Shown here: piece by piece, positions 402-11,738 of the stretch
Layout of the letters: each line of letters opens with the position of its first letter
Position numbering within the stretch: position 1 is the first letter of the stretch
Virus genome (UHGV): UHGV-0327824
Reading direction: 5' to 3' (one strand)
Source: a virus
DNA length: 13,131 bases
The notes under the pieces: generated by a model
The model's input: only the letters and a program-made list of their open reading frames with translations
Databases searched by the model: none
What the model was told of the DNA's origin: nothing
Translations under genes and position numbers: made by a program

Positions 402-3224
402 ATGACGACAGAGTACATCAGGGACTGGCAACAACCGCGCCACGCAGTAGGACGTGAAGGAACGGAGATCCCCGCACCTGAATCCGCACTTTCCTCCTGG
501 CTGGATGCCTACCGGGCAGAGAACGAGCGCCGCCAGGAAATGGCTGATGCGGCGTTCTCCGCCACGCCGCTGGGCAACCTGATTAATAAAAGCCTGGACG
601 CACAGGAAAAACAGGACAAAACAATCACACTGGCAGGAGACGCCAGAAAACAGGCACGCGGCGCGGTAGATGAGGCCATGGCCTCACTGCGCCTGCTGCC
701 GTCCTATCTGCGCGATCCGCTTATTCGCCACCTCTCCTTCCTGCGCAAAAAACAGGAAGCCGATCGTCAGAAAGGAAAAAACGCCAGGCAGGCAGAACGC
801 TATGCGCGTGGGACCCTGCGCAAAATATTCGAACGTCTGGAGCGCACCGATCACCGCTGGCTGACATCGGGTTATCGCTCCCTTGCCGGACGTGAACGCC
901 TGGACGATTTGCTTTACCTGCCGCAACTCAACAAACACCAGATACAGACGCTGGCCACCATGACGGCGGCGATGTTCAGCAGCACCTTCGAAAAACTCTG
1001 CGATGGTTTTGGCGCGACTGATGGCGAGCTGACCATGGATGTAACGCTGAAGGTGTATCAGATGCTGGCCCGCATGGCATTACATCTGCACACCATGCCG
1101 CCACATTATGACGCACTGACAACAGACAAAGACCGGAGGAACGAACCAGACACGGAGCTGCTGCCGGGCGCAATTCTTCGCCTGACCTGTGCGGAATGGT
1201 GGAAGCGCAAACTGTGGCTTTTACGTTGCGAGTGGCGGGAAGAACAACTCCGCGCCGCCTGTCTGGTTTCCAGAAAAACATCGCCCTATCTGAGCCAGGA
1301 CGCGTTAAGCGAGTTTCGCGCACAGCGCGAGAAAACACGCGATTTCCTGAAAAGTTTCATGCTGGAAAACGAAGACGGGTTCACGATTGATCTCGAGACA
1401 GTGTATTACGCGGGAGTAAGTAACCCGGTTCACCGTAAGGCAGAAATGATGGCCACCATGAAGGGGCTGGAACTTCTGGCCGAAGCCCGTGGCGACAAAG
1501 CGGTGTTTCTGACTGTCACCTGCCCGTCAAAATACCACGCCACAACAGAGAACGGTCATCCGAATCCCAAATGGAACGGGGCCACCATGCGCGACTCCAG
1601 CGATTATCTGGTTAACACGTTTTTTGCGGCGGTCCGCAAAAAACTGAACCGCGACGGCCTGCGCTGGTATGGCATCCGCACGGTGGAGCCTCACCATGAC
1701 GGCACCGTGCACTGGCATATGATGGTCTTTGCTCATCCGGAAGAAATCGACAGCATCGTGGCCATCACCCGCGATATTGCCATTCAGGAAGACCGCCACG
1801 AGCTGGGCAATGATATTACTCCGCGCTTTAAGGTGGAGTATGTCGACGGCTCAAAAGGCACACCAACCAGCTATATCGCGACCTACATCGGAAAAAACCT
1901 GGACAGCCGCGCCGTCGATGGCATCGACCCGAAAACGGGCAAGCCACGCGTTGACCACGAAACCGGAAAATCAATGGCCGAGAGCGTGGAGCGCGCCATC
2001 GGCTGGGCGCGCCTTCACCGGGTCCGTCAGTTCCAGTTCTTTGGCATCCCCTCCCGTCAGGTGTGGCGTGAACTGCGCCGCCTTGCCAGCCAGATGGCAC
2101 GCAATCCGGAAGGCCCGCAACGGCTGAAAGATGATGCAATGGATGCGGTACTCGCTGCCGCCGATGCCGGGTGTTTTGCCTCCTACATTGAAAAACAGGG
2201 TGGCGTGCTTGTTCCACGCAAGGACTACCTGATTCGCACCGCCTACGACCTCGCAGATGAGCTGAACGATTACGGCGAACAGAGCGTACAGATTTACGGG
2301 ATCTGGTCACCACTCATCGGGGAATCCTCCCGTGTGTGCACGCATCCGGATAACTGGAAGTTGGTAAGACGTAAACCAGAACCAGAAGACAACGCCCACG
2401 AAAATGGTTTTGACCTTCAGGGCGGCCCTGCCGCCCCTTGGACTCGTGGCAATAACTGTCCCCGTGTACAGGAAACGGACAACAACGGGACAGAACAGCC
2501 GGAAGAACGGCCAGCACCGTGGCCGCAGCTTCCTGACGGCGTTGACGTGAACGAATGGATGCGCTCACTGAAACGGCACGAACGCCGGGCGCTGATGCGT
2601 TCGCTGCGTGACAAACAGGCAAAAAACAGCAGTGATGGAATGCAGAGCTGGACACAGAGCCGCAAACAGCAGCGGCCTTTGCCTGATAACCACGAATTAC
2701 TCGCTAAAGAATGGCGGGAATCTGCCGAATCTCTCGGCCTGCATATCGGTGAACAGCAGATGCAGCACCTGTTACGGGGCGGCAGCCTGTACGTTGACGG
2801 CAGCATCATTGCACCGCAGGGATTTGAAATTGTACGCAAACCGGATACCCGCCCGGACAGCCGAATCACGCAGCTCTGGCAGCGCCTGAGCCGTAATCAC
2901 GGCGTAAGCAGCACGGAGATCCGCCATAACCCGGTCGCCAGCTATCTGGAACAGCTGGGGGCATCAGACCCCGAAGCCGCCGCACGTCTGGCATCCACAC
3001 TTCAGCAGGACCAGAACACCATGACCCCCCCCGTTACCGTGCTTTCTGACATGCTGCGCGCCATCCGCGACGCAGAGCACGCACAGAGAATCAGTGAAAC
3101 CACTGAACGTGCCCGCCGCAAAGCAGACCTGCTGCGGGGTGGCCTGACCAGTGGAAACAAAAAACAGACAGAAACGGGATTCACAAATCCCGTAAATGAG
3201 CAAAAAACGCGCCGCGATATATGA
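402..3224 (+). CDS. A: P2 gpA-family rolling-circle replication initiation endonuclease (940 aa)
   Basis: Translation contains a HUH-type motif (VHWHMMVF) followed by paired tyrosines (YIATYIGKN), as in P2/186 gpA. Context supports it: Ogr, D, FI, FII, E in the same window. About 180 aa longer than P2 gpA as I recall it (about 761 aa). Confidence 0.88.
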   Translation: MTTEYIRDWQQPRHAVGREGTEIPAPESALSSWLDAYRAENERRQEMADAAFSATPLGNLINKSLDAQEKQDKTITLAGDARKQARGAVDEAMASLRLLPSYLRDPLIRHLSFLRKKQEADRQKGKNARQAERYARGTLRKIFERLERTDHRWLTSGYRSLAGRERLDDLLYLPQLNKHQIQTLATMTAAMFSSTFEKLCDGFGATDGELTMDVTLKVYQMLARMALHLHTMPPHYDALTTDKDRRNEPDTELLPGAILRLTCAEWWKRKLWLLRCEWREEQLRAACLVSRKTSPYLSQDALSEFRAQREKTRDFLKSFMLENEDGFTIDLETVYYAGVSNPVHRKAEMMATMKGLELLAEARGDKAVFLTVTCPSKYHATTENGHPNPKWNGATMRDSSDYLVNTFFAAVRKKLNRDGLRWYGIRTVEPHHDGTVHWHMMVFAHPEEIDSIVAITRDIAIQEDRHELGNDITPRFKVEYVDGSKGTPTSYIATYIGKNLDSRAVDGIDPKTGKPRVDHETGKSMAESVERAIGWARLHRVRQFQFFGIPSRQVWRELRRLASQMARNPEGPQRLKDDAMDAVLAAADAGCFASYIEKQGGVLVPRKDYLIRTAYDLADELNDYGEQSVQIYGIWSPLIGESSRVCTHPDNWKLVRRKPEPEDNAHENGFDLQGGPAAPWTRGNNCPRVQETDNNGTEQPEERPAPWPQLPDGVDVNEWMRSLKRHERRALMRSLRDKQAKNSSDGMQSWTQSRKQQRPLPDNHELLAKEWRESAESLGLHIGEQQMQHLLRGGSLYVDGSIIAPQGFEIVRKPDTRPDSRITQLWQRLSRNHGVSSTEIRHNPVASYLEQLGASDPEAAARLASTLQQDQNTMTPPVTVLSDMLRAIRDAEHAQRISETTERARRKADLLRGGLTSGNKKQTETGFTNPVNEQKTRRDI
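3172..3196. promoter_or_regulatory. Palindromic site copy 1 (AAACGGGATTCACAAATCCCGTAAA), inside the 3' end of gene A
   Basis: Arms ACGGGAT / ATCCCGT are exact reverse complements with a 6 nt spacer; a near-identical copy lies 73 bp downstream. Confidence 0.45.
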
Positions 3225-3244
3225 AGCGCACACAAAACAGGCAA

Positions 3245-3269
3245 AAACGGGATTTCAGAATCCCGTAAA
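3245..3269. promoter_or_regulatory. Palindromic site copy 2 (AAACGGGATTTCAGAATCCCGTAAA), about 30 bp upstream of the ParM-like start; candidate operator/centromere
   Basis: Same 7-6-7 inverted repeat as copy 1, followed by an AT-rich -10-like stretch (TTAATTAAT) and the RBS AAGGAAAA of the ParM-like gene. Confidence 0.45.
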
Positions 3270-3300
3270 CGATTAATTAATCAACATAAGGAAAAGCGAC

Positions 3301-4260
3301 ATGAAAATTTGTATCGACGACGGCTCCACCAACATCAAGCTGGCATGGACTGAGAATGGCGAACGCCGCAACGCCATCAGCCCGAACAGCTTCAAGTCGG
3401 AATGGTCTGCGCCGTTCGGTGGCATGCAGCCCGCGAACTACATGCTTGATGGCGTGCGCTATGGTTTTGATCCGGTTAGCGATCGCTTTGTCCAGACGAC
3501 CGACACGCAATACCAGTACAGCGATGTGAATGTAATCGCCATTCATCACGCGCTGGTCAAATCAGGCATCACGCCACAGGAGGTGGATGTGGTTGTCACC
3601 CTGCCACTGAGCGAGTATTTCGACACAAACGCACAGCCGGACATGGCCAACATCAACCGCAAAAAAGCGAACGTTATGCGCCCGGTGGAGTACCAGAACG
3701 GCGAAGCATTCACTATCCGTAACGTGCGGGTTATGCCTGAATCCATTCCGGCTGGCTTTAAAGCACTGGCTGACATGAGTCCGTTTGAATCCCTGCTGAT
3801 TGTGGATTTAGGCGGAACCACGCTGGATGTGGCAAAGGTTCAGGGGCAACTGGCAGGTATCAGCCAGGTGTTTTGCGATCCACACGTAGGCGTCTCCCTG
3901 ATGGCCGGTGCCGTGCTGTCGGTGATGGCCGCTAACGGTATGCGTACCAGTCACCACATCGCCAATACCATTATCGAACATCGCCATGATGAAGCCTGGT
4001 TGCGCCAACACATCCACAATGACGCGCATTACGCCAGCCTGATGGCGGTTATTCGTGAAAAGGAAGAAACACTGAAACAACGCGTGATCCGCGCGCTGGC
4101 GGGTTTTTCGGGTTACGGGCGGGTGATGGTTGTCGGTGGCGGGGCGGAGATTGTGGCACCCGCTATCCGCGAAGCCTGCGGAGTTAATGTGACTTTCATC
4201 GCGGACGAGGTGCCACAGTTTGCTCTGGTTAATGGGCTGTACGCAATGGACAAGGAGTAA
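3301..4260 (+). CDS. parM: Actin-like plasmid segregation ATPase, ParM/StbA family (319 aa)
   Basis: N-terminus MKICIDDGSTNIKLAW matches the ParM/StbA phosphate-1 motif (R1 ParM begins MLVFIDDGSTNIKLQW from memory). Further shared blocks: ISPNSFK, YSDVNV..HHAL, RKKAN, VMPESIPAG, SLLI(V/I)DLGGTTLD, GVSL, V(M/V)V(I/G)GGGAE, LVNG(M/L)Y. RBS AAGGAAAA before the ATG. Confidence 0.85.
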   Translation: MKICIDDGSTNIKLAWTENGERRNAISPNSFKSEWSAPFGGMQPANYMLDGVRYGFDPVSDRFVQTTDTQYQYSDVNVIAIHHALVKSGITPQEVDVVVTLPLSEYFDTNAQPDMANINRKKANVMRPVEYQNGEAFTIRNVRVMPESIPAGFKALADMSPFESLLIVDLGGTTLDVAKVQGQLAGISQVFCDPHVGVSLMAGAVLSVMAANGMRTSHHIANTIIEHRHDEAWLRQHIHNDAHYASLMAVIREKEETLKQRVIRALAGFSGYGRVMVVGGGAEIVAPAIREACGVNVTFIADEVPQFALVNGLYAMDKE

Positions 4261-4264
4261 ACCA

Positions 4265-4579
4265 ATGACGACACCAACCAGACGGATAAGTTTCTATCTG
4301 AAGCCAGTCGCCGTCAATAGTGAACGGGAGGCGTGTAATTACCTCGACAGCCTGCCAGCCTCTGAACGCAGCCGCGCGCAACGCGCGGCCTTTCTGGCCG
4401 GGCTGGCACTCATAAAACGCGATCCTGCATTTGCCTATTGGTTGGCCGAATGGCCGGAAGAAGGAGCTGCGCCAGCCAAGAATAATATTCAGAGTAAATA
4501 TGCCAGCACACCTGCCACCGGAAGCAATCACAGCACTAGCGAGATAAGAAAGAACATTCAGTCATTTTTCCCAGAGTGA
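4265..4579 (+). CDS. parR: ParR/StbB-like centromere-binding adaptor (104 aa)
   Basis: Directly downstream of the ParM-like gene (4 nt gap, RBS GGAG). Resembles R1 ParR as recalled: ISFYLKP vs IAFKLNP, LDSLPASERSRAQRAAFLAGLAL vs LDSIPQGERSRLNRAALTAGLAL. Start taken at ATG 4265, not the longer in-frame ORF from 4220. Confidence 0.7.
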   Translation: MTTPTRRISFYLKPVAVNSEREACNYLDSLPASERSRAQRAAFLAGLALIKRDPAFAYWLAEWPEEGAAPAKNNIQSKYASTPATGSNHSTSEIRKNIQSFFPE

Positions 4580-4598
4580 AAACAGGAGAGGAGCATCT

Positions 4599-5060
4599 AT
4601 GGCAACTATCCCCAAAAAATGGTTACAACGCAAAATTGCAGACCTTGAATCGTGTCGTGAAGACATCCCGTTTGGCCTTGATGAAAACGATCACAATATG
4701 TTAATCGCACTGAAAATCGCACTCACATCGCTGGAAGCAGAGGCAGTTATGTTCTGTATATCAGGACAAAATGTAGATTCAGAAGAACATGTATCAACCA
4801 GCAAAGCGGTTGTTGATGCCTGGGTTGAAGAATGGAATCAGGTTGACGGAAGTCCTGGCGAACCACTGTACAAAACTATGCCACTCTACTATCACGCTGC
4901 CTTGCCAGCGCCGGTAGTGCCGGAAGAAGCAACTCCGGAAAACGTAGAAATGCTCTCTGGCTATGTTTCCACGTACAAATTAACCGATAGCGAGCGCGAT
5001 ATTGCTGCCGAAATATGGAACGCCTGCCGCGCCGCTATGCTTCATGGGAAAGGAGAGTGA
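4599..5060 (+). CDS. Hypothetical acidic protein (153 aa), third gene of the parMR operon
   Basis: Strong RBS AGGAGAGGAG 5 nt before ATG 4599, 19 nt after the parR stop. Acidic composition, no motif I recognise. Noticeably more AT-rich than the flanking phage genes. Confidence 0.6.
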   Translation: MATIPKKWLQRKIADLESCREDIPFGLDENDHNMLIALKIALTSLEAEAVMFCISGQNVDSEEHVSTSKAVVDAWVEEWNQVDGSPGEPLYKTMPLYYHAALPAPVVPEEATPENVEMLSGYVSTYKLTDSERDIAAEIWNACRAAMLHGKGE

Positions 5061-5061
5061 T

Positions 5062-5325
5062 ATGGCAACTTTAACAAAAAAAGAACGGGCATGGTTGAAC
5101 GAATTACAGGACGTTCTTGATCGCTGCCCATCACCGAAAAAAATTGGTTTTTACACCATTGGCGATAAAAGCATTTACCTGTATGACCTGCGCCGCATGG
5201 ATGAAATCATGGAGGCTCTTGATAATCGTTCGTCAATGGATTGGTGTGTTGCTGTCCATGATATGAATGCAGGGTTTGATGAAAAGATTTTGTTCCCCTC
5301 ATCAGTTGAAAGCACAGCAGGATAA
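5062..5325 (+). CDS. Hypothetical protein (87 aa), translationally coupled to the preceding gene
   Basis: ATG 5062 lies 1 nt after the upstream stop (TGA 5058..5060), with GGAGAG RBS inside the upstream gene's 3' end. Intrinsic terminator follows at 5362..5385. Start is at the internal ATG, not the 5002 ORF-track start. Confidence 0.6.
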   Translation: MATLTKKERAWLNELQDVLDRCPSPKKIGFYTIGDKSIYLYDLRRMDEIMEALDNRSSMDWCVAVHDMNAGFDEKILFPSSVESTAG

Positions 5326-5361
5326 GGACCCAGCAAATATACACAACCTATAAAACACTAA

Positions 5362-5385
5362 AGCGCCTCAGGGGCGCTTTTTGTT
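5362..5385 (+). terminator. Rho-independent terminator closing the parM-parR-orf-orf operon
   Basis: Stem AGCGCC / GGCGCT with a 5 nt loop, then TTTTTGTTT. Confidence 0.7.
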
Positions 5386-5811: not shown

Positions 5812-5911
5812 CGAAGCAGCAGACAAGCGAAGCGCGTCAGCGATACGGCACCTTGCCGACCATACTTCATAAGTGCAAAATACGAGCAAAGAAATCAATG
5901 GAGGCTGTCTT

Positions 5912-6436
5912 ATGGTCATTAATTACAAGCAGTTAAGAGAAAAACGGGAGCAGGTAAAGGAGAGCTTTCGCCGCAATGAAGATCTGACCCCGCTTGTACG
6001 CCTTGCCCAGGGCATTGTTGATGCTTATGAAATCTCGCTGGAGCTGCCATCACAGACCTGGACAGATAGCGACGGTAATCGCCAGCATTACGTTTCATGC
6101 GGACTGGAAGCAGCCGAAGGATTTCGCAGAATGCCTTTATCCCAGATCCCTGCCGCTACCCCCAAAGCACGGGGCAGCAATGATGAGCGAAAACTGACTT
6201 TTAGTATTGAAACGGTGGTTGACGACACACCTGGCGAAGTCGCGTTCGTGCACACGCCTGTTTCGATCGCAATGTATAACGATGAAATACAGGTTCGCGT
6301 TAATAATAATATCGTGCCACTTAAAGAAGGTAATTCACCCTACACCACCGTTTGTGAAGCCATTCAATATTACGTTCTCTCTGAAATTGATAATCTCAAG
6401 CCTGACGGCACCCAGAAAATGGTTCAACTCTGGTAA
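5912..6436 (+). CDS. Hypothetical protein (174 aa), orphan cargo gene
   Basis: ATG 5912 preceded by GGAGG at 7 nt spacing; the ORF-track start at 5873 is a GTG without an RBS. Ends at TAA 6434..6436, followed directly by a hairpin terminator. No recognisable motif; AT-rich relative to the phage genes. Confidence 0.6.
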   Translation: MVINYKQLREKREQVKESFRRNEDLTPLVRLAQGIVDAYEISLELPSQTWTDSDGNRQHYVSCGLEAAEGFRRMPLSQIPAATPKARGSNDERKLTFSIETVVDDTPGEVAFVHTPVSIAMYNDEIQVRVNNNIVPLKEGNSPYTTVCEAIQYYVLSEIDNLKPDGTQKMVQLW

Positions 6437-6467: not shown

Positions 6468-7939
6468 CATCAAGAAGAGCATAAGAGTTAAAACGGATCA
6501 CCTCTTCGCCAAGCCAGTCATTGATGTGCTTCATAGCCTCCATGACGGGCATCAGCTCGTTAATTGCGTAAACCGTCACCCGCCGCATCAACGAGTGCCA
6601 TAAACGATGTGAAAGCCTCTTCCCCGGCGATGTCCTTAAAGAAGGATACCCGGTCAACTTCCCCGTATTTGCGGGTAGCTTTATAAAGGTCAGCCAGCAG
6701 ATCTTCCATCGGGCGCATTTTGCCCCCGGCATCCGAGACGGACACGCCCAGCTCTTTCAGAGCTTCTGCCGCCGCCTTTGGCGGTGATGCCAGACGAGCC
6801 AGGCTGGCACGCATTGCCGTCCCGGCATCACTCCCTCTGATGCCCATATTCGCCAGCACGCCCGCCATCGCTGCGGCCTGCTCCAGCGATATCCCCAGCT
6901 TACCCGCCACCGGACCGGCATATTTCATGGTTTCGCCCAGTGCGCGAAGGTCAGTGTTGGTACGGGTAAACGCTGCGGTGAGTGTGTCTCCGACCCGGTC
7001 CATCTGGTCAGCAGAAAGGCCGAACTGCGTCAGGATATTTGAGCCAATATCTGCCGTCTCGCCGAGATCCATACCGCCAGCCGTTGCCATGCTCAGTACG
7101 CCGGGAAGCGCAGCCTGAATGGCCTGCGGAGTGAAGCCTGCCATTGCAAGAAATGCCTGCCCACTGGCGGCATCGCCTGCGGTGAACTGCGTTTCAGAGC
7201 CAAGTTTTAACGCCTGCTCACGCAGCGCCTTAAACTGCGGGCTGTTTTTGTCGATTCGCGTCAGTGCCTGAACGCGGGACATCTCTTTCCCGAACCCGAT
7301 CGCAGGCTGCAAAAAACGCCCGGCAGCATAGCCGCCAGCCGCTGCCGCACCAATTGCCAGCGCACCACCTGTTTTCAGTTTTCCTGCTGTTTCCTGCGCG
7401 CGCGAATACCGCTCACGCGCACGCGTTACACGCGCAAGCGCCTGCCGTTCGCGTTCAAGCTGATTGTTGTACTGTTCGGTGCGTCTGATGGCCTGCTGGA
7501 TGGTGTTATCGCTGCCTGTCAGGGAAATGCCGTGGCGTTTCAGCTCTCCGCCAAGCTCCCGCATTTTCTGAATTTCCCGTGTGCGCGATTCATTCAGGCG
7601 TTCAAGCCGGGTGCTTAACTGCTGCATCAGCTTTTGTTGTTTTTCGCTGAGCACTGTACCCGTGCGTTGTAACTGATTAAGGGCGTTAAGCTGGCGTCGT
7701 GCTTTCACGATGCCAGCATCCGCTTTACTGACAGCGTCACGGGCGCGCTCAAATGAACGCGCCTGACGCTCGAGATTTTTGATCGCCCCCTGCGTTCGCT
7801 GGATGGAGTCACCAAACTGCCCCATCAGGCGGCGGGCGTTTTCGGCAGGCCGGGTCAGCCTGTCAACGGCGCTGAAAGCGACCCGGATATCAAGAGTCTT
7901 CATTGTCTGCATTCCCGCTGCGAAGTGCCGCCCGCTCAC
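6451..7939 (-). pseudogene. T: Truncated/frameshifted tail tape measure gene (P2 gpT-like): 459 aa N-terminal ORF plus an out-of-frame 93 aa tail
   Basis: Starts overlapping the end of E', as in P2. N-terminal region is coiled-coil-like with long Ala/Gly-rich stretches, typical of tape measure proteins. ORF 6560..7939 stops at 459 aa against about 815 aa recalled for P2 gpT; a different frame continues to 6451 into the terminator. No U gene follows. Start codon ambiguous (GTG at 7939 or ATG at 7912/7903). Confidence 0.65.
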
Positions 7940-8419
7940 GCCAGCTAACCACTTCGCCGGGCGTCATCATGAAGATTTCAGCGGGCGACCAGTTAAAAAT
8001 AACGGCAATATCTGCCACAAAGTCTTCTATGTGCTCAAAGCACACAACCGTGATCAGGCTTCCGTCGCCTGTTCGTTCTTCCCGCCAGAGTCCGCACCGC
8101 TCAAAAAATTTACGGCAACCACACATAACTGAATAAAGTCACGGGATGCCATTTTTTTGATCGTCACTTCATCCAGTCGCGGTGATGTCACGCGTGACAG
8201 CAGCGTAAACATGGATTCCGCTTTCAGATTCAGCACATCAGACAACGACAAATCTCGCAGAGATCCAGCCTGCTCAATAGCTCCGGTGATCTCCACATAC
8301 GTGATTTTTTCGCCGCCTCGCTCAATTGGTTGGGTAAGTTTTACGCCACGCTCACTGGTTTCTTTCACAGTGTCAGTAACTACCGTGTTTTCGGTATCGA
8401 TGTTTTTCGTCTCTTTCAT
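7890..8419 (-). CDS. E': gpE+E' fusion made by programmed -1 ribosomal frameshift at TTTTTTG (plus-strand 8102..8108)
   Basis: Zero frame reads ..VAVNFLSGADSGGKNEQATEA-stop. The -1 frame from the slippery site reads ..KFFERCGLWREERTGDGS...NADNEDS-stop, ending at 7890 and overlapping the T start. Verified codon by codon on the minus strand; same arrangement as P2 E/E' and lambda G/GT. Confidence 0.7.
8054..8419 (-). CDS. E: Tail assembly chaperone gpE-like (121 aa)
   Basis: Sits between FII and T as in P2. RBS AAAGGAG before ATG (8417..8419 complement). Contains the slippery heptamer TTTTTTG near its 3' end. Confidence 0.8.
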   Translation of the reverse strand: MKETKNIDTENTVVTDTVKETSERGVKLTQPIERGGEKITYVEITGAIEQAGSLRDLSLSDVLNLKAESMFTLLSRVTSPRLDEVTIKKMASRDFIQLCVVAVNFLSGADSGGKNEQATEA

Positions 8420-8473
8420 CAGGAAACTCCTTTCAGTCAGAGGCGACGCACTGCGCCGCCTGCATATTACTTA

Positions 8474-8986
8474 TCAGCCAAGCCCAAGCGCGGAACGGAT
8501 ACGGTCAGGCACAATGTCCTTGCCGTCCTTCCGGTAAATGAAGTTCAGCAGGTCAATCTCCCACAACGGGCGATCGTTAACACTCAGCTTGTAGTAGGTG
8601 TTTTTAATGGCGTAAGTGTGTGATGTGGCTTCGCCCTGTTTGGCTTCCCCCATATCAATTTCCGTCACACGTCCGCGCATTTCGACTTCATACAGGTCGC
8701 TTTCTGCATCGGTGTAGTATTCACCCGCAAAACGCAGCAGCGTGCCGTCAATCGTACCGCCATACTTAAGGAACAGCTCACGAACTGCGCCCCCCATGAC
8801 AAAGCTCGCATCAAGCGCGGAGTCGTCCAGACCGAGATCAATACTTACCGCACCCATCATGCCACCACCCCGGTAGCTGTCGGTTTTGCGCGTCAGTTTA
8901 GGCAGAGTGACGGACGTCACCTTACCCACTTCGTTTTCACCATCCACAAACAGCGTAAAAAAGCGAAGATGTTTTGGTACAGCCAT
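8474..8986 (-). CDS. FII: Tail tube protein, P2 gpFII-like (170 aa)
   Basis: Size matches P2 FII (about 172 aa). Start ATG overlaps the FI stop by 1 nt (ATGA). Lies between the sheath gene and E. Confidence 0.88.
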   Translation of the reverse strand: MAVPKHLRFFTLFVDGENEVGKVTSVTLPKLTRKTDSYRGGGMMGAVSIDLGLDDSALDASFVMGGAVRELFLKYGGTIDGTLLRFAGEYYTDAESDLYEVEMRGRVTEIDMGEAKQGEATSHTYAIKNTYYKLSVNDRPLWEIDLLNFIYRKDGKDIVPDRIRSALGLG

Positions 8987-10170
8987 CAGGCACCTCCCAG
9001 CACCGCAAATGCGGGACCAAAGAATTCATCAGTAAACGACTGGTAAAGCTCCATGTCTTCCAGCGGGGGAACTGGCGTATATTTGTAGCGAATACGCACA
9101 CGTCCCTGACGTAAACCCGTGGTGCTGTTATCCACCACGTCATACCAGCACTCCGCGCCAATCAGTTTCCCGGCAGTAACCAGTGAATCCAGTTTTGCCC
9201 TGATGGCACTGATAACATCCTTCACGTTCGCAGGCGTCAGTGGACTGTCGATGGTTTCAAACTGCGCTTCCGCAATTGAATCAGCCAGCACCTGTGCGGT
9301 TCGGGTATACACCTCAAAGATGTAGGCGTTCGTTTCCGGTGTGCGGTTGCCCCAGAAGCGGAACCCGTTACGACGAATAATGGTCGTGATTTCTTTGTTG
9401 TTAAGGCTGTTGGCATCGCTGTCTTCGGCCTGCAACGACCAGAACACATGCCGGGACATCCCCAGCACATTTTTAACCGGAACGTTGGACAGTGATTTGT
9501 GCCAGCCCTGCTCATGGTCAATGTACGCACGAAGGCCGCACGCATAAGCAGGCGCGGGGAACGTTTCGTTTTTGCCACTTTTCGGGTTGTAGGCGATGAA
9601 GTCCGGCCATAAGAGCATCACCTCACGTTCGTTGAATTTCTGGCGGTAGGTAATTGCCTCTGCCATCGTGTTACAGCCATGACATGAGGCATACACAAAC
9701 GCGCGCAGTTTACCCGCAATCACGCACAGGGATTTTGTCACCGCCTCCGTGTCCAGCTCCGGCGCGGCCAGAATACGCGGACGGTATCCGATGCTTTCAT
9801 CCTGCTCTGCAACAAGCAGCGCATACATCCCCGTATAGCTGCCGTCAGATTCAGAACCACCGATAACCAGTTGATCCTGCGTCTTTCCGTTTTCTTCTTT
9901 GTGTTCAGCCACGCGAACGACGATCACCTTTGTGCTCACCTGGTCTGCGATGGCCTTAAGCGCACGATAAAGCGTCCCCGTTGTCCCGCATTTTCCCAGC
10001 ACGTCATTGACGCGGGTCAGCAGTGTGGGCTTGTTCAGCGGGAACAGCTTCGCGTCCGCATCATCCGCCGTTGCCACGATACCGATAACGCTGGAATCAA
10101 CATCGTTAATCGCTGTTACCAGGTCGGTACTTTCCGTAACACGGGCACCATGAAAACGAGTTTCACTCAT
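8986..10170 (-). CDS. FI: Contractile tail sheath protein, P2 gpFI-like (394 aa)
   Basis: Size matches P2 FI (about 396 aa). First gene of the FI-FII-E-T block, coupled to FII. Confidence 0.88.
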   Translation of the reverse strand: MSETRFHGARVTESTDLVTAINDVDSSVIGIVATADDADAKLFPLNKPTLLTRVNDVLGKCGTTGTLYRALKAIADQVSTKVIVVRVAEHKEENGKTQDQLVIGGSESDGSYTGMYALLVAEQDESIGYRPRILAAPELDTEAVTKSLCVIAGKLRAFVYASCHGCNTMAEAITYRQKFNEREVMLLWPDFIAYNPKSGKNETFPAPAYACGLRAYIDHEQGWHKSLSNVPVKNVLGMSRHVFWSLQAEDSDANSLNNKEITTIIRRNGFRFWGNRTPETNAYIFEVYTRTAQVLADSIAEAQFETIDSPLTPANVKDVISAIRAKLDSLVTAGKLIGAECWYDVVDNSTTGLRQGRVRIRYKYTPVPPLEDMELYQSFTDEFFGPAFAVLGGA

Positions 10171-10327
10171 AGCTTCAGCCCCTTGTATCCGTTAAATGAT
10201 TCGGCAACAATCATCACCCACCACGCGCGTAATCTCACCCCTGCGCCGTTCTCCCGCCACGGCGACAACAAAAAGCAGTAACCCCCTCCGCACGCACATG
10301 CGACCATGCCGCACAGGGAGGGAGCAG

Positions 10328-11437
10328 ATGACCGACACCACCATGCAATTGCTCAGTCAGGGCACAGACCCCGTAAAAATGCCGGATTTTGATATTCTCG
10401 CGGAGGGTAAAACGCTGTCAGGCGTGGCAGAGCGCCTGATGAGCCTGTCACTGACCGACAACCGGGGATTTGACGCGGACCAGCTCACCATCACGCTGGA
10501 TGATGCGGATGGTCAGTTGCAGCTACCGCCACGGGGCGCGCGCCTGACGGTTCTCATTGGCTGGAAAGGAGAACCGCTGACAGAAAAAGGCACTTACATT
10601 GTTGATGAAATCGCTCACGAAGGACCGCCGGACAGGCTGACTGTTTCAGCCAGAAGCGCAGATTTTCGGGATGAATTTAACGTTAAACGTGAGGTGTCCT
10701 GGCATGATGTGACCGTTGAGCGTGTGGTATCCGCCATCGCTCATCGGTATGGTCTGAAACCGCAAATCAGCGAAATGCTGATGGATATCGAAATCGACCA
10801 CGCCGACCAGACCGAAGAAAGCGACATGTCCTTCCTTACGCGCATGGCGGAAATGCTGGGCGCAATCACCACGGTAAAAAGCGGCAATCTGTTATTCATC
10901 ATGCCAGGTGGTGGCGTGAACGCACAGGGCCAGCCGTTGCCCTCGTTCGCCATTACACGCAGCAGCGGCGATCGCCATCAGTTCCGCATTGCTGACCGCG
11001 AGGCGTATACGGGGGTACGCGCCTACTGGCTTGATCTTAATTACGGGAAAAAGAAAAAAGTCAGCGTGAAACGCCGTAAACCGCCAAAACCCAAAAAGGA
11101 GAAAAGCAGCAGCCGTGAAGGTGATTATATGGAAGGCGCGGAAGGCAATGTGTTTGTGTTACGCAAGACTTATCAGAACGAGCAGGCAGCAAGACGCGCA
11201 GCGGCGGCAAAGTGGCAGCAACTACAACGCGGAGCCGCATCATTCTCCATCACGCTGGCGCGTGGACGTGCAGAACTCTACCCCGAAATGCATGGCACGG
11301 TAACAGGATTTAAAAGCGAGATTGATAATAAGGACTGGATCATTGCAAAAGCCGAGCACACCATTGATAACAGCGGTTTTACCACGCAGCTTGAGCTTGA
11401 GGCAAAAATCCCGGAATGGATAGCGGAAACAGAGTGA
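10328..11437 (+). CDS. D: P2 gpD-like tail/late control protein D (369 aa)
   Basis: Start chosen at ATG 10328 with RBS GGAGGGAG 3..10 nt upstream, not the longer ORF from 10196. Size close to P2 gpD (about 387 aa). Immediately followed by ogr, as in P2. Confidence 0.85.
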   Translation: MTDTTMQLLSQGTDPVKMPDFDILAEGKTLSGVAERLMSLSLTDNRGFDADQLTITLDDADGQLQLPPRGARLTVLIGWKGEPLTEKGTYIVDEIAHEGPPDRLTVSARSADFRDEFNVKREVSWHDVTVERVVSAIAHRYGLKPQISEMLMDIEIDHADQTEESDMSFLTRMAEMLGAITTVKSGNLLFIMPGGGVNAQGQPLPSFAITRSSGDRHQFRIADREAYTGVRAYWLDLNYGKKKKVSVKRRKPPKPKKEKSSSREGDYMEGAEGNVFVLRKTYQNEQAARRAAAAKWQQLQRGAASFSITLARGRAELYPEMHGTVTGFKSEIDNKDWIIAKAEHTIDNSGFTTQLELEAKIPEWIAETE

Positions 11438-11477
11438 GCAACTTAGAATAGGCAGCACCACGTTAAGGGAGGTCGCT

Positions 11478-11738
11478 ATGTTCCGTTGTCCGCTTTGTGG
11501 CGCATCTGCCCGTATCCGCACCAGTCGTCCGGAAAATGATTCAAACACCGTGCGGCAAAAGTATTACCAGTGTAACAATCTGGAATGCGGCGTATGCTTC
11601 TCAACACTGGAAGCTTTCCATAAATTCACATCAAAACACGCCTCCGGCGTTCACTCTTCAGAAGGTATCCCGTGGCATGAGCTGCCAGCTTCACACAGGG
11701 GAAACAATCAGATGAGTTTGCCTTTATCTCAGAATTAA
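11478..11738 (+). CDS. ogr: Ogr/Delta-family zinc-finger late transcription activator (86 aa)
   Basis: N-terminus MFRCPLCGASARIRTSR...YYQCNNLECGVCF matches P2 Ogr (MFHCPLCQHAAHARTSR...YHQCQNVNCSATF) with the C-x2-C...C-x4-C zinc finger. RBS AAGGGAGG before the ATG. Confidence 0.88.
   Translation: MFRCPLCGASARIRTSRPENDSNTVRQKYYQCNNLECGVCFSTLEAFHKFTSKHASGVHSSEGIPWHELPASHRGNNQMSLPLSQN

Follow-up and report, generated by a model that had tools for sequence, protein, structure and literature searches.

A predicted ParMRC-type partition module with paired upstream palindromes in the backbone of P88-like phages of the P2 family

Partition genes and candidate centromere behind gene A

The window, that is, the whole 13,131-nucleotide stretch of UHGV virus genome UHGV-0327824 analysed here, carries, judging from its sequence and gene order, the right-hand portion of the early operon from a P2-like prophage of the P88 type (Xuanwuvirus). 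Directly behind its replication gene A lies a pair of partition genes, parM and parR, which is preceded by two palindromes and is the subject of this study. Gene A (402–3224, plus strand; stop codon at 3222–3224) encodes a P2-type rolling-circle replication endonuclease of 940 aa (Pfam Phage_GPA, 1e-130). In the 99.9% identical locus of an intact prophage (L001), the Prokaryotic Genome Annotation Pipeline (PGAP) labels it "replication endonuclease". The end of gene A is separated by 76 bp from parM (3301–4260, plus strand, 319 aa), and parR (4265–4579, plus strand, 104 aa) begins 4 nt past the parM stop. The original prediction, made from the DNA letters and their open reading frames (ORFs), had placed a ParM/ParR pair right behind gene A in a P2-like prophage, where canonical P2 has none. 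The gene map and the profile searches of both proteins bear this out.

ParM was identified as an actin-fold ATPase. It matched the Pfam domains StbA_N (2.7e-82) and ParM C-terminal domain (3.1e-67), both far over the curated cut-offs. The match to the structure of R1 ParM (1MWK) reached 1.2e-92 and covered residues 2–316, of which about half are identical. The alignment to R1 ParM showed that the ATPase motifs IDDGSTNIKL, MPESIPAG and DLGGTTLD are kept, and D6, D7, G8, E147, D169 and G171–T174 were invariant among 14 diverged homologues. DDGST is the phosphate-binding (phosphate-1) motif, and E147 and D169 correspond to E148 and D170; D170 is the classical ATPase residue of ParM (PMC5539076).

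ParR matched the family Plasmid_stab_B (PF10784) at 3.8e-25 and 88 bits, the cut-off being 25 bits. Against the ParR of pB171 (2JD3), the single sequence reached 0.004 and a family profile of phage and plasmid ParRs reached 1.9e-16; the match spans the N-terminal DNA-binding domain and the helices that follow it. By family and profile match, the N-terminal domain is of the ribbon-helix-helix ParR type. The single-sequence AlphaFold model had a predicted local distance difference test score of only 48.7, which is too low for a fold search. The N-terminal domain of this adaptor is followed by a linker that varies and by a C-terminal tail that is conserved (..RKNIQSFFPE). The motif (K/R/Q)N-x3-(L/F/M)F was present in this tail in every aligned phage and plasmid ParR, with N97 and F102 invariant. 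In R1, the C-terminal peptide of ParR is said to be the part that binds ParM (the 4A62 work). The start codon of parR is most likely the ATG at 4265, as in PGAP, and not the TTG at 4220, because an AAGGAG (4251–4256, inside the end of parM) lies 8 nt before it.

Both proteins are clear members of known families and have already been annotated. PGAP names them "plasmid segregation protein ParM" and "plasmid partitioning/stability family protein", and PHROGs places each in a "partition protein" family. Beyond this annotation lie their proposed role in an integrating phage and the compact paired-palindrome candidate centromere.

The analysis of alleles showed that parM is under strong purifying selection. 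The mean nonsynonymous divergence (dN) was 0.0045 and the mean synonymous divergence (dS) was 0.087, which gives a ratio of 0.05 (69 distinct alleles from 86 loci), and ParM was full-length in 86/86 sampled loci. The ratio of nonsynonymous to synonymous polymorphism (pN/pS) in ParR was 0.12–0.15 in the N-terminal 64 residues, 0.5–0.7 in the linker and 0.07–0.19 in the last 12 residues. This pattern fits what would be expected of a working adaptor whose head binds DNA and whose tail binds ParM, with a flexible linker in between.

Two forms of ParR, a P88 type and a window type, occur among E. coli phages that are otherwise near-identical, while ParM stays 98% identical. The linker (about residues 65–92) is hypervariable, and megablast matches to P88-type records end within parR at about position 4317. 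The dimorphism suggests recombination or diversifying change in the adaptor. Truncated forms of ParM were also seen in the protein database, as clusters of 261, 229 and 188 aa with 414, 649 and 555 members (P0006, P0009 and P0017). The 188-aa form sits on a 5.1-Mb contig, and parM seems to be disrupted in some clonal lineages of E. coli.

The repeat search showed that a parC-like region lies at 3157–3272. It consists of two copies of a 43-nt direct repeat (3157–3199 and 3230–3272), which are 81% identical and 73 bp apart from start to start, and each copy is made of an A-rich flank and a palindromic core. Site 1 (ACGGGATTcacaAATCCCGT, 3174–3193) falls inside the last codons of gene A, with its GGG-N10-CCC core 125 bp 5′ of parM. 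Site 2 (ACGGGATTtcagAATCCCGT, 3247–3266) lies in the spacer between gene A and parM, 52 bp 5′ of parM. Both are candidate ParR-binding sites. Across the whole window, ACGGGATT-N4-AATCCCGT occurs only at these two places. With three mismatches allowed, there were two matches in the window against 0.09 expected by chance. The palindrome was absent elsewhere in one full 34-kb phage genome. Two near-identical palindromes of 25 bp, 73 bp apart, had been predicted here: their places and spacing hold, but the perfect palindrome is 20 nt long (8 + 4 + 8) and the rest belongs to the A-rich flanks.

The palindromes lie at −127 and −54 relative to the parM start in all of the approximately 85 E. coli-clade loci, a clade in which the sequences are too alike for column conservation around the palindromes to be informative. 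The variants found in this clade have only one arm altered, without compensation; ACGGGACT faces AATCCCGT in more than 25 of these loci with no compensatory change. In the diverged lineages, the GGG-N10-CCC element is again present exactly twice, at −128/−55 in Hafnia and −131/−59 in Plesiomonas, compared with −125/−52 in E. coli. The spacing is 73 or 72 bp across the three lineages, and the background frequency of GGG-N10-CCC in these loci is 0.2–0.5 per kb. The sequence around the sites has diverged in Hafnia and Plesiomonas. Hafnia keeps site 1 although the overlapping upstream ORF is unrelated to gene A. A separate 167-aa ORF 5′ of parM in Hafnia was considered as the counterpart of the C-terminal extension of gene A, and no similarity was found.

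The palindromes could also act as hairpins. They would then be leftward terminators that shield gene A from antisense transcription, or single-strand signals for the initiation of rolling-circle replication, and parC would lie elsewhere or be absent. They adjoin the replication gene, and both are terminator-like on the minus strand with a T-rich run after each. Their folding energies as single-stranded DNA are −8.1/−8.2 kcal/mol in E. coli, with z-scores of −4.5/−3.8. However, the sites of Hafnia and Plesiomonas fold weakly (−1 to −3.2 kcal/mol) while their core and spacing are kept, the one-sided arm variants of the E. coli clade are uncompensated, and the transcription unit is already closed by a bidirectional terminator at 5360–5380. 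We therefore regard the hairpin explanation as quite improbable. Because the spacing and the core are kept and the hairpin stability is not, the palindromes are better read as a protein-binding site than as a terminator or a single-strand signal. A conserved half-site pair that occurs twice, about seven helical turns apart, fits the signature of a binding site on duplex DNA. The proposal that the palindromes are a parC-like centromere or operator has gained from this comparison: position, spacing and the GGG-N10-CCC core are kept where ParM is only 62% identical. They are good candidates for such a site, and ParR would be the protein that binds them.

The upstream repeats of the Serratia/Enterobacter group are different, with 20-nt inverted arms 26–28 nt apart. 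The palindrome CCGTTTAAACGG is found in the Serratia locus and is imperfect in the other three loci of the group. The β-strand of ParR opens with NRK in this group and with TRR in the others. ParR β-strand and upstream repeats may therefore co-vary, which is a weak indication from two classes only.

A 9-mer, ATTAATCAA, lies at 3276–3284, between site 2 and the Shine-Dalgarno sequence of parM. It was also found in loci L006 (about 5976–5984) and L008 (about 5972–5980), and it is kept in E. coli, Hafnia and Plesiomonas while the neighbouring bases differ. It is too near the ribosome-binding site to be a −10 element.

The terminator scan found no plus-strand terminator between gene A and parM. 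A scan of 3100–3300 for the sigma-70 consensus gave no match, and hence no autoregulated promoter was seen within the candidate parC. The region upstream of parM in Hafnia and Plesiomonas had no sigma-70 consensus either; Serratia and Enterobacter had one match each, which overlaps the start codon of parM and is unusable for this gene. The promoter scan is a crude consensus test, and its negative result is a weak one. We infer that parM and parR are made together with the early replication operon, because no terminator follows gene A and no promoter of their own is recognisable. In R1, the promoter lies inside parC.

Place of the gene pair in the phage backbone

The cassette region (3100–4700) is 94–98% identical to P88, to other members of Xuanwuvirus (Peduoviridae) and to the Citrobacter rodentium phage phiSM. 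The taxonomic names follow the sequence record. It was present in 1304 of 5426 complete E. coli genomes. Its E. coli occurrences (n = 1444) comprise 1442 chromosomal places and 2 plasmid places. The gene order of intact relatives begins with int, C, cox, ..., A, parM, parR, small ORFs, portal, terminase, capsid and lysis genes. It continues with the baseplate and fibre genes, an invertase gene, the opposite-strand genes U, T, E, FII and FI, and then D and ogr. An actin-like machine known from plasmid textbooks is thus kept under strong selection in a very common family of integrating E. coli prophages, present in about a quarter of the genomes. A contig labelled as the Gram-positive genus Vagococcus (Vagococcus sp. 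WN89Y, NZ_JBQPOM010000071.1) also encodes a ParM with 97% identity to that of the E. coli phages, which is likely to be assembly contamination or mislabelling.

The plasmid comparison was a translated ParM search of 72,556 plasmids, and its figures refer to the matches listed. Among these, there was no ParM at 60–95% identity. Six records at 95–99% are copies of the prophage module, and genuine plasmid ParMs reach about 52% at best. In the phage collection, ParM homologues were found only in Xuanwuvirus members and in phage D6 (47.8% identity). A search of 5.8 billion proteins showed that the intermediates, at 54–62% identity, come from Hafnia, Plesiomonas, Serratia and Enterobacter. In all of these relatives that were examined, the gene pair lies after a Phage_GPA gene and before the portal/terminase genes of a P2-like prophage. 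Two further viral contigs, 74–75% identical to the Serratia type, have the same gene pair and upstream repeats. By comparison, the ParM homologues of at most 52% identity that were examined adjoin Rep3, ParA or Tra genes, in plasmid or integrative and conjugative element (ICE) contexts. In a neighbour-joining tree of 106 ParMs, drawn without support values, the P2-context proteins formed one group of 16 leaves on a short basal branch, which is suggestive of monophyly.

The diverged relatives were found via the protein search and contig look-ups, and a second scan of viral contigs, with a Serratia-first alignment, added three diverged loci. The first scan of viral contigs gave 80 near-identical copies, which were used for the population statistics and not for covariation. 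A scan of species-representative genomes with ParM alone gave at least three loci, all near-identical.

Between parR and the portal gene, each lineage has cargo of its own. This interval holds HicA/HicB and a Y1 transposase in Serratia (L009, 7450–9394) and a KAP-family nucleoside triphosphatase (NTPase) in Enterobacter (L010, 7411–8757). This part is a variable "hotspot" of P2-like phages. By gene order across the lineages, parM and parR are the constant, A-proximal part of the gene A–portal interval, and the cargo varies distally.

The comparison of identities and gene order indicates that the cassette is a long-conserved part of the backbone of P88-like/Xuanwuvirus phages and of their diverged relatives in four other genera. 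The original prediction had spoken of a plasmid-type cassette embedded in a prophage. This view is not upheld: the pair is a backbone feature of the subclade, always in the slot between gene A and the portal gene, and among the matches listed no plasmid ParM exceeds 52% identity. For annotators, this means that a ParM/ParR pair alone does not count as evidence of a plasmid or phage-plasmid contig.

Possible role in an integrating phage

We propose, with moderate confidence, that parM, parR and the paired sites form a functional type II (ParMRC) DNA-segregation module in the conserved backbone of the P88-like phages and of related temperate phages in the P2 family. The protein identities, motifs, purifying selection, synteny and cis sites described above argue for this role, which would further involve binding of ParR to the sites, an early timing of expression and an episomal circle as cargo. 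Dimers of ParR would bind both GGG-N10-CCC palindromic sites 5′ of parM, and the C-terminal tail of ParR would capture growing filaments of ParM-ATP. These filaments may push apart or position the phage DNA circles. The gene pair would be co-expressed with the early operon after infection or induction, and not in the repressed lysogen. The cargo would be the extrachromosomal phage circles that arise from A-dependent rolling-circle replication, not the integrated prophage; at that stage, we see no other sensible cargo for a ParMRC machine. As a result, excised or incoming circles may be spared loss or clumping at division, or may be organised for replication and packaging. The earlier idea of a stabilisation module co-opted by the prophage is plausible in this form; it would concern the excised or infecting circle and not the integrated prophage.

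The classical system most like this module is R1/NR1 ParMRC (StbAB). The two share the order cis sites–parM–parR, full-length ParM homology, a ParR of PF10784 and a similar C-terminal tail of ParR. The R1 system belongs to a low-copy plasmid, whereas the phage module lies on an integrating P2-like phage. The parC of R1 is laid out as two blocks of five 11-bp direct iterons that flank a promoter, whereas the phage region has two 20-nt palindromes 73 bp apart, and no promoter consensus was found there. The phage ParM also differs from R1-type proteins in that it seems to form a clade of its own, set apart from the plasmid ParMs by the identities given above. The ParR of pB171 (StbB, 2JD3) is the only solved structure matched by the phage ParR family, at low sequence identity. 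It has 130 aa, compared with 104 aa and a hypervariable linker in the phage ParR, and its DNA sites are unrelated. Phage D6 has a gene of the StbA type, whose product is the 47.8% identical ParM mentioned above. D6 is a 91-kb P1-like phage that lysogenises as a plasmid. The need for partition is obvious in such a plasmid lysogen, unlike in an integrating P2-like phage.

Two systems on integrated elements offer closer parallels in lifestyle. The srpMRC system makes loss of the SXT/R391 ICE less frequent while this element is excised and replicates by the rolling-circle mode (Carraro et al. 2015, PMC4489591). Its centromere, srpC, consists of four short repeats arranged as two pairs just 5′ of the ATPase gene (PMC4489591). 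The phage module is likewise an actin-type partition system on a normally integrated element that uses a rolling-circle initiator once excised, and its candidate centromere likewise has four half-sites in two pairs. It differs in that SrpR has no detectable similarity to ParR while the phage protein is a true PF10784 ParR, and in that srpMRC lies on an ICE and not on a phage; function has been demonstrated for srpMRC, whereas the phage module is known from sequence. In the integrated prophage CGP3 of Corynebacterium, AlpAC/alpS is induced early, attaches the circular phage DNA to actin-like filaments and is required if the phage is to replicate efficiently (PMC4446434, PMC5539076). It resembles the phage module in having an actin-like filament former and a co-transcribed adaptor, which in CGP3 binds repeats 5′ of the operon. 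It differs in its actin-like family, in its unrelated adaptor and in its Gram-positive host, and alpS is a short repeated TTAAnnG motif while the phage sites are paired palindromes. By analogy, both a stabilisation of circles across divisions, as in srpMRC, and an organisation of replication, as in AlpAC, would fit the phage module, and we do not rank them.

If phage circles are segregated or positioned in this way, the parallel with srpMRC and AlpAC would reach widespread enterobacterial phages and blur the line between prophage, ICE and plasmid. P88 and phiSM would then be a tractable E. coli system for studying why integrative elements need cytoskeletal segregation.

Several points weigh against a segregation module acting on phage circles. 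Lytic replication of the P2 type gives many circles, and it is hard to see what these would gain from being segregated in pairs by ParMRC. The two palindromes amount to just four half-sites, with no iteron array like that of R1, whose parC has ten iterons and is a far larger centromere. The two palindromes could be an operator only, and some of the conservation of site 1 in E. coli could be due to its position within the coding sequence of gene A. A weak or ParR-regulated promoter could exist and allow expression in lysogens. The intact parM and parR of deletion remnants (the window and an O157 prophage) are uninformative on function either way. We found no experiment on ParMR of the P88 type in the searchable literature (ParM with P2-like, Peduoviridae, Xuanwuvirus or prophage), and the paper on phiSM merely names the gene as a possible "fitness factor" (PMC6456863).

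A bolder version of the proposal is tentative and rather less likely. After infection or transient excision, the phage may persist as a low-copy, A-replicated circle that is partitioned by ParMRC and lives like a plasmid for generations before it integrates or reintegrates; otherwise, ParM filaments may organise the phage DNA in the lytic cycle. If this dual lifestyle were true, P88-like phages would be facultative phage-plasmids and the phage counterpart of the SXT/R391 ICEs.

It is unlikely that P88-like phages are facultative plasmids as such, which persist as low-copy circles in place of integration or in parallel with it, with ParMRC partitioning a plasmid state that is still used or was recently passed down by an ancestral phage-plasmid. 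Outside these phages, ParMRC is a hallmark of low-copy plasmids, and D6 is the only other phage in the collection with this type of ParM. The sole hints of an episome are two records. One is a complete circular P88-like genome of 34,461 bp (34.5 kb), filed as plasmid pZ1323PEC0009-2 (NZ_CP148288.1). The other is a 32,167-bp contig of Plesiomonas shigelloides (WEKF01000002.1), with the integrase about 140 bp from its end and no host gene at the integrase end; by its size, it appears to consist of phage DNA only, which is compatible with an excised or episomal form. However, phage-sized circular records can arise by spontaneous induction in culture, and the integrase type of NZ_CP148288.1 was found integrated in 311 chromosomes and on 0 plasmids. 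The integrase, C and cox genes were present in every lineage in which the region 5′ of gene A was read. No theta-type or Rep/iteron replicon was seen in the window or in the annotations of intact prophages, where the rolling-circle A protein is the only replication protein. The evidence for a true plasmid state is thin. An episomal phase in the ancestry of the element, as had been suggested for the window, thus finds little backing: all but two of the E. coli copies lie in chromosomes, and these phages have an integrase and show no plasmid-type replicon. The integrase of NZ_CP148288.1 adjoins the ogr/hok/methyltransferase end, as in an excised attP form.

We give little credence to the explanation that ParR, alone or with ParM, is expressed from the integrated prophage and serves lysogenic conversion or competition, by excluding related incoming phages or plasmids through centromere incompatibility, by an influence on chromosome segregation or as anti-phage defence in the variable hotspot of P2. 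The gene A–portal interval is a defence hotspot of P2-like phages. It carries variable cargo such as HicAB and the KAP NTPase, the deletion remnants (window and O157) retain an intact gene pair, and a possible "fitness factor" has been mentioned for phiSM (PMC6456863). However, ParM, ParR and the downstream ORFs of the window gave no match to PADLOC defence models, the gene pair is the constant part of the interval while the variable cargo is distal, and the consensus scan detected no promoter of its own. The full partition set is also kept, with ATPase motifs, a putative ParM-binding tail and paired sites, which is more than a function limited to repression or exclusion would require.

That the cassette is a decaying, non-functional passenger derived from a plasmid is very improbable and largely refuted by the selection data: truncated ParM clusters have hundreds of members each and the window prophage is itself defective, but parM has the low dN/dS and full-length reading frames reported above, the pair occupies the same slot at 54–62% protein identity over five genera, the constraint on ParR tracks its domains, and the active plaque-forming phages P88 and phiSM carry the module (for phiSM, PMC6456863).

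The prophage remnant in the window and neighbouring features

Two small ORFs of unknown function that belong to PHROG families follow parR on the plus strand (4599–5060 and 5062–5325). They are variable cargo outside the partition module. A bidirectional terminator-like hairpin found by the terminator scan (5360–5380) closes the transcription unit. The tRNA and Rfam scans of the window gave no matches.

Up to position 5844, the window aligns collinearly with L001, an intact prophage, and with P88. A 631-bp insert follows, with an ORF at 5873–6436 (187 aa, phrog_5091, unknown function). Behind it, a 99-bp stub of the 3′-end of the portal gene (6476–6574) runs at about 6573 into internal sequence of the tape-measure gene (6560–7939, minus strand). 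Apart from this stub, the portal gene is missing from the window, as are the terminase, capsid, lysis, baseplate, fibre and U genes and part of the tape-measure gene. From this gene content, the window prophage is a deletion remnant that would no longer be able to make virions. Gene A, parM and parR of this remnant share 99.9% identity with their counterparts in the intact prophage. The exact arrangement of the window was found in no complete E. coli genome of the collection.

Another P2-like remnant was seen in the O157 strain 180-PT54 (L100, 902–5079). It has IS3 and IS30 insertions and a frameshifted tape-measure gene and lacks head genes, yet gene A, parM and parR are still full-length in it.

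The tail genes FI, FII, E and T (6560–11738 in the window), together with U in intact copies, lie on the strand opposite to D and ogr. In the map of P2, these genes form one co-directional block. A DNA invertase gene adjoins the opposite-strand tail block in intact relatives.

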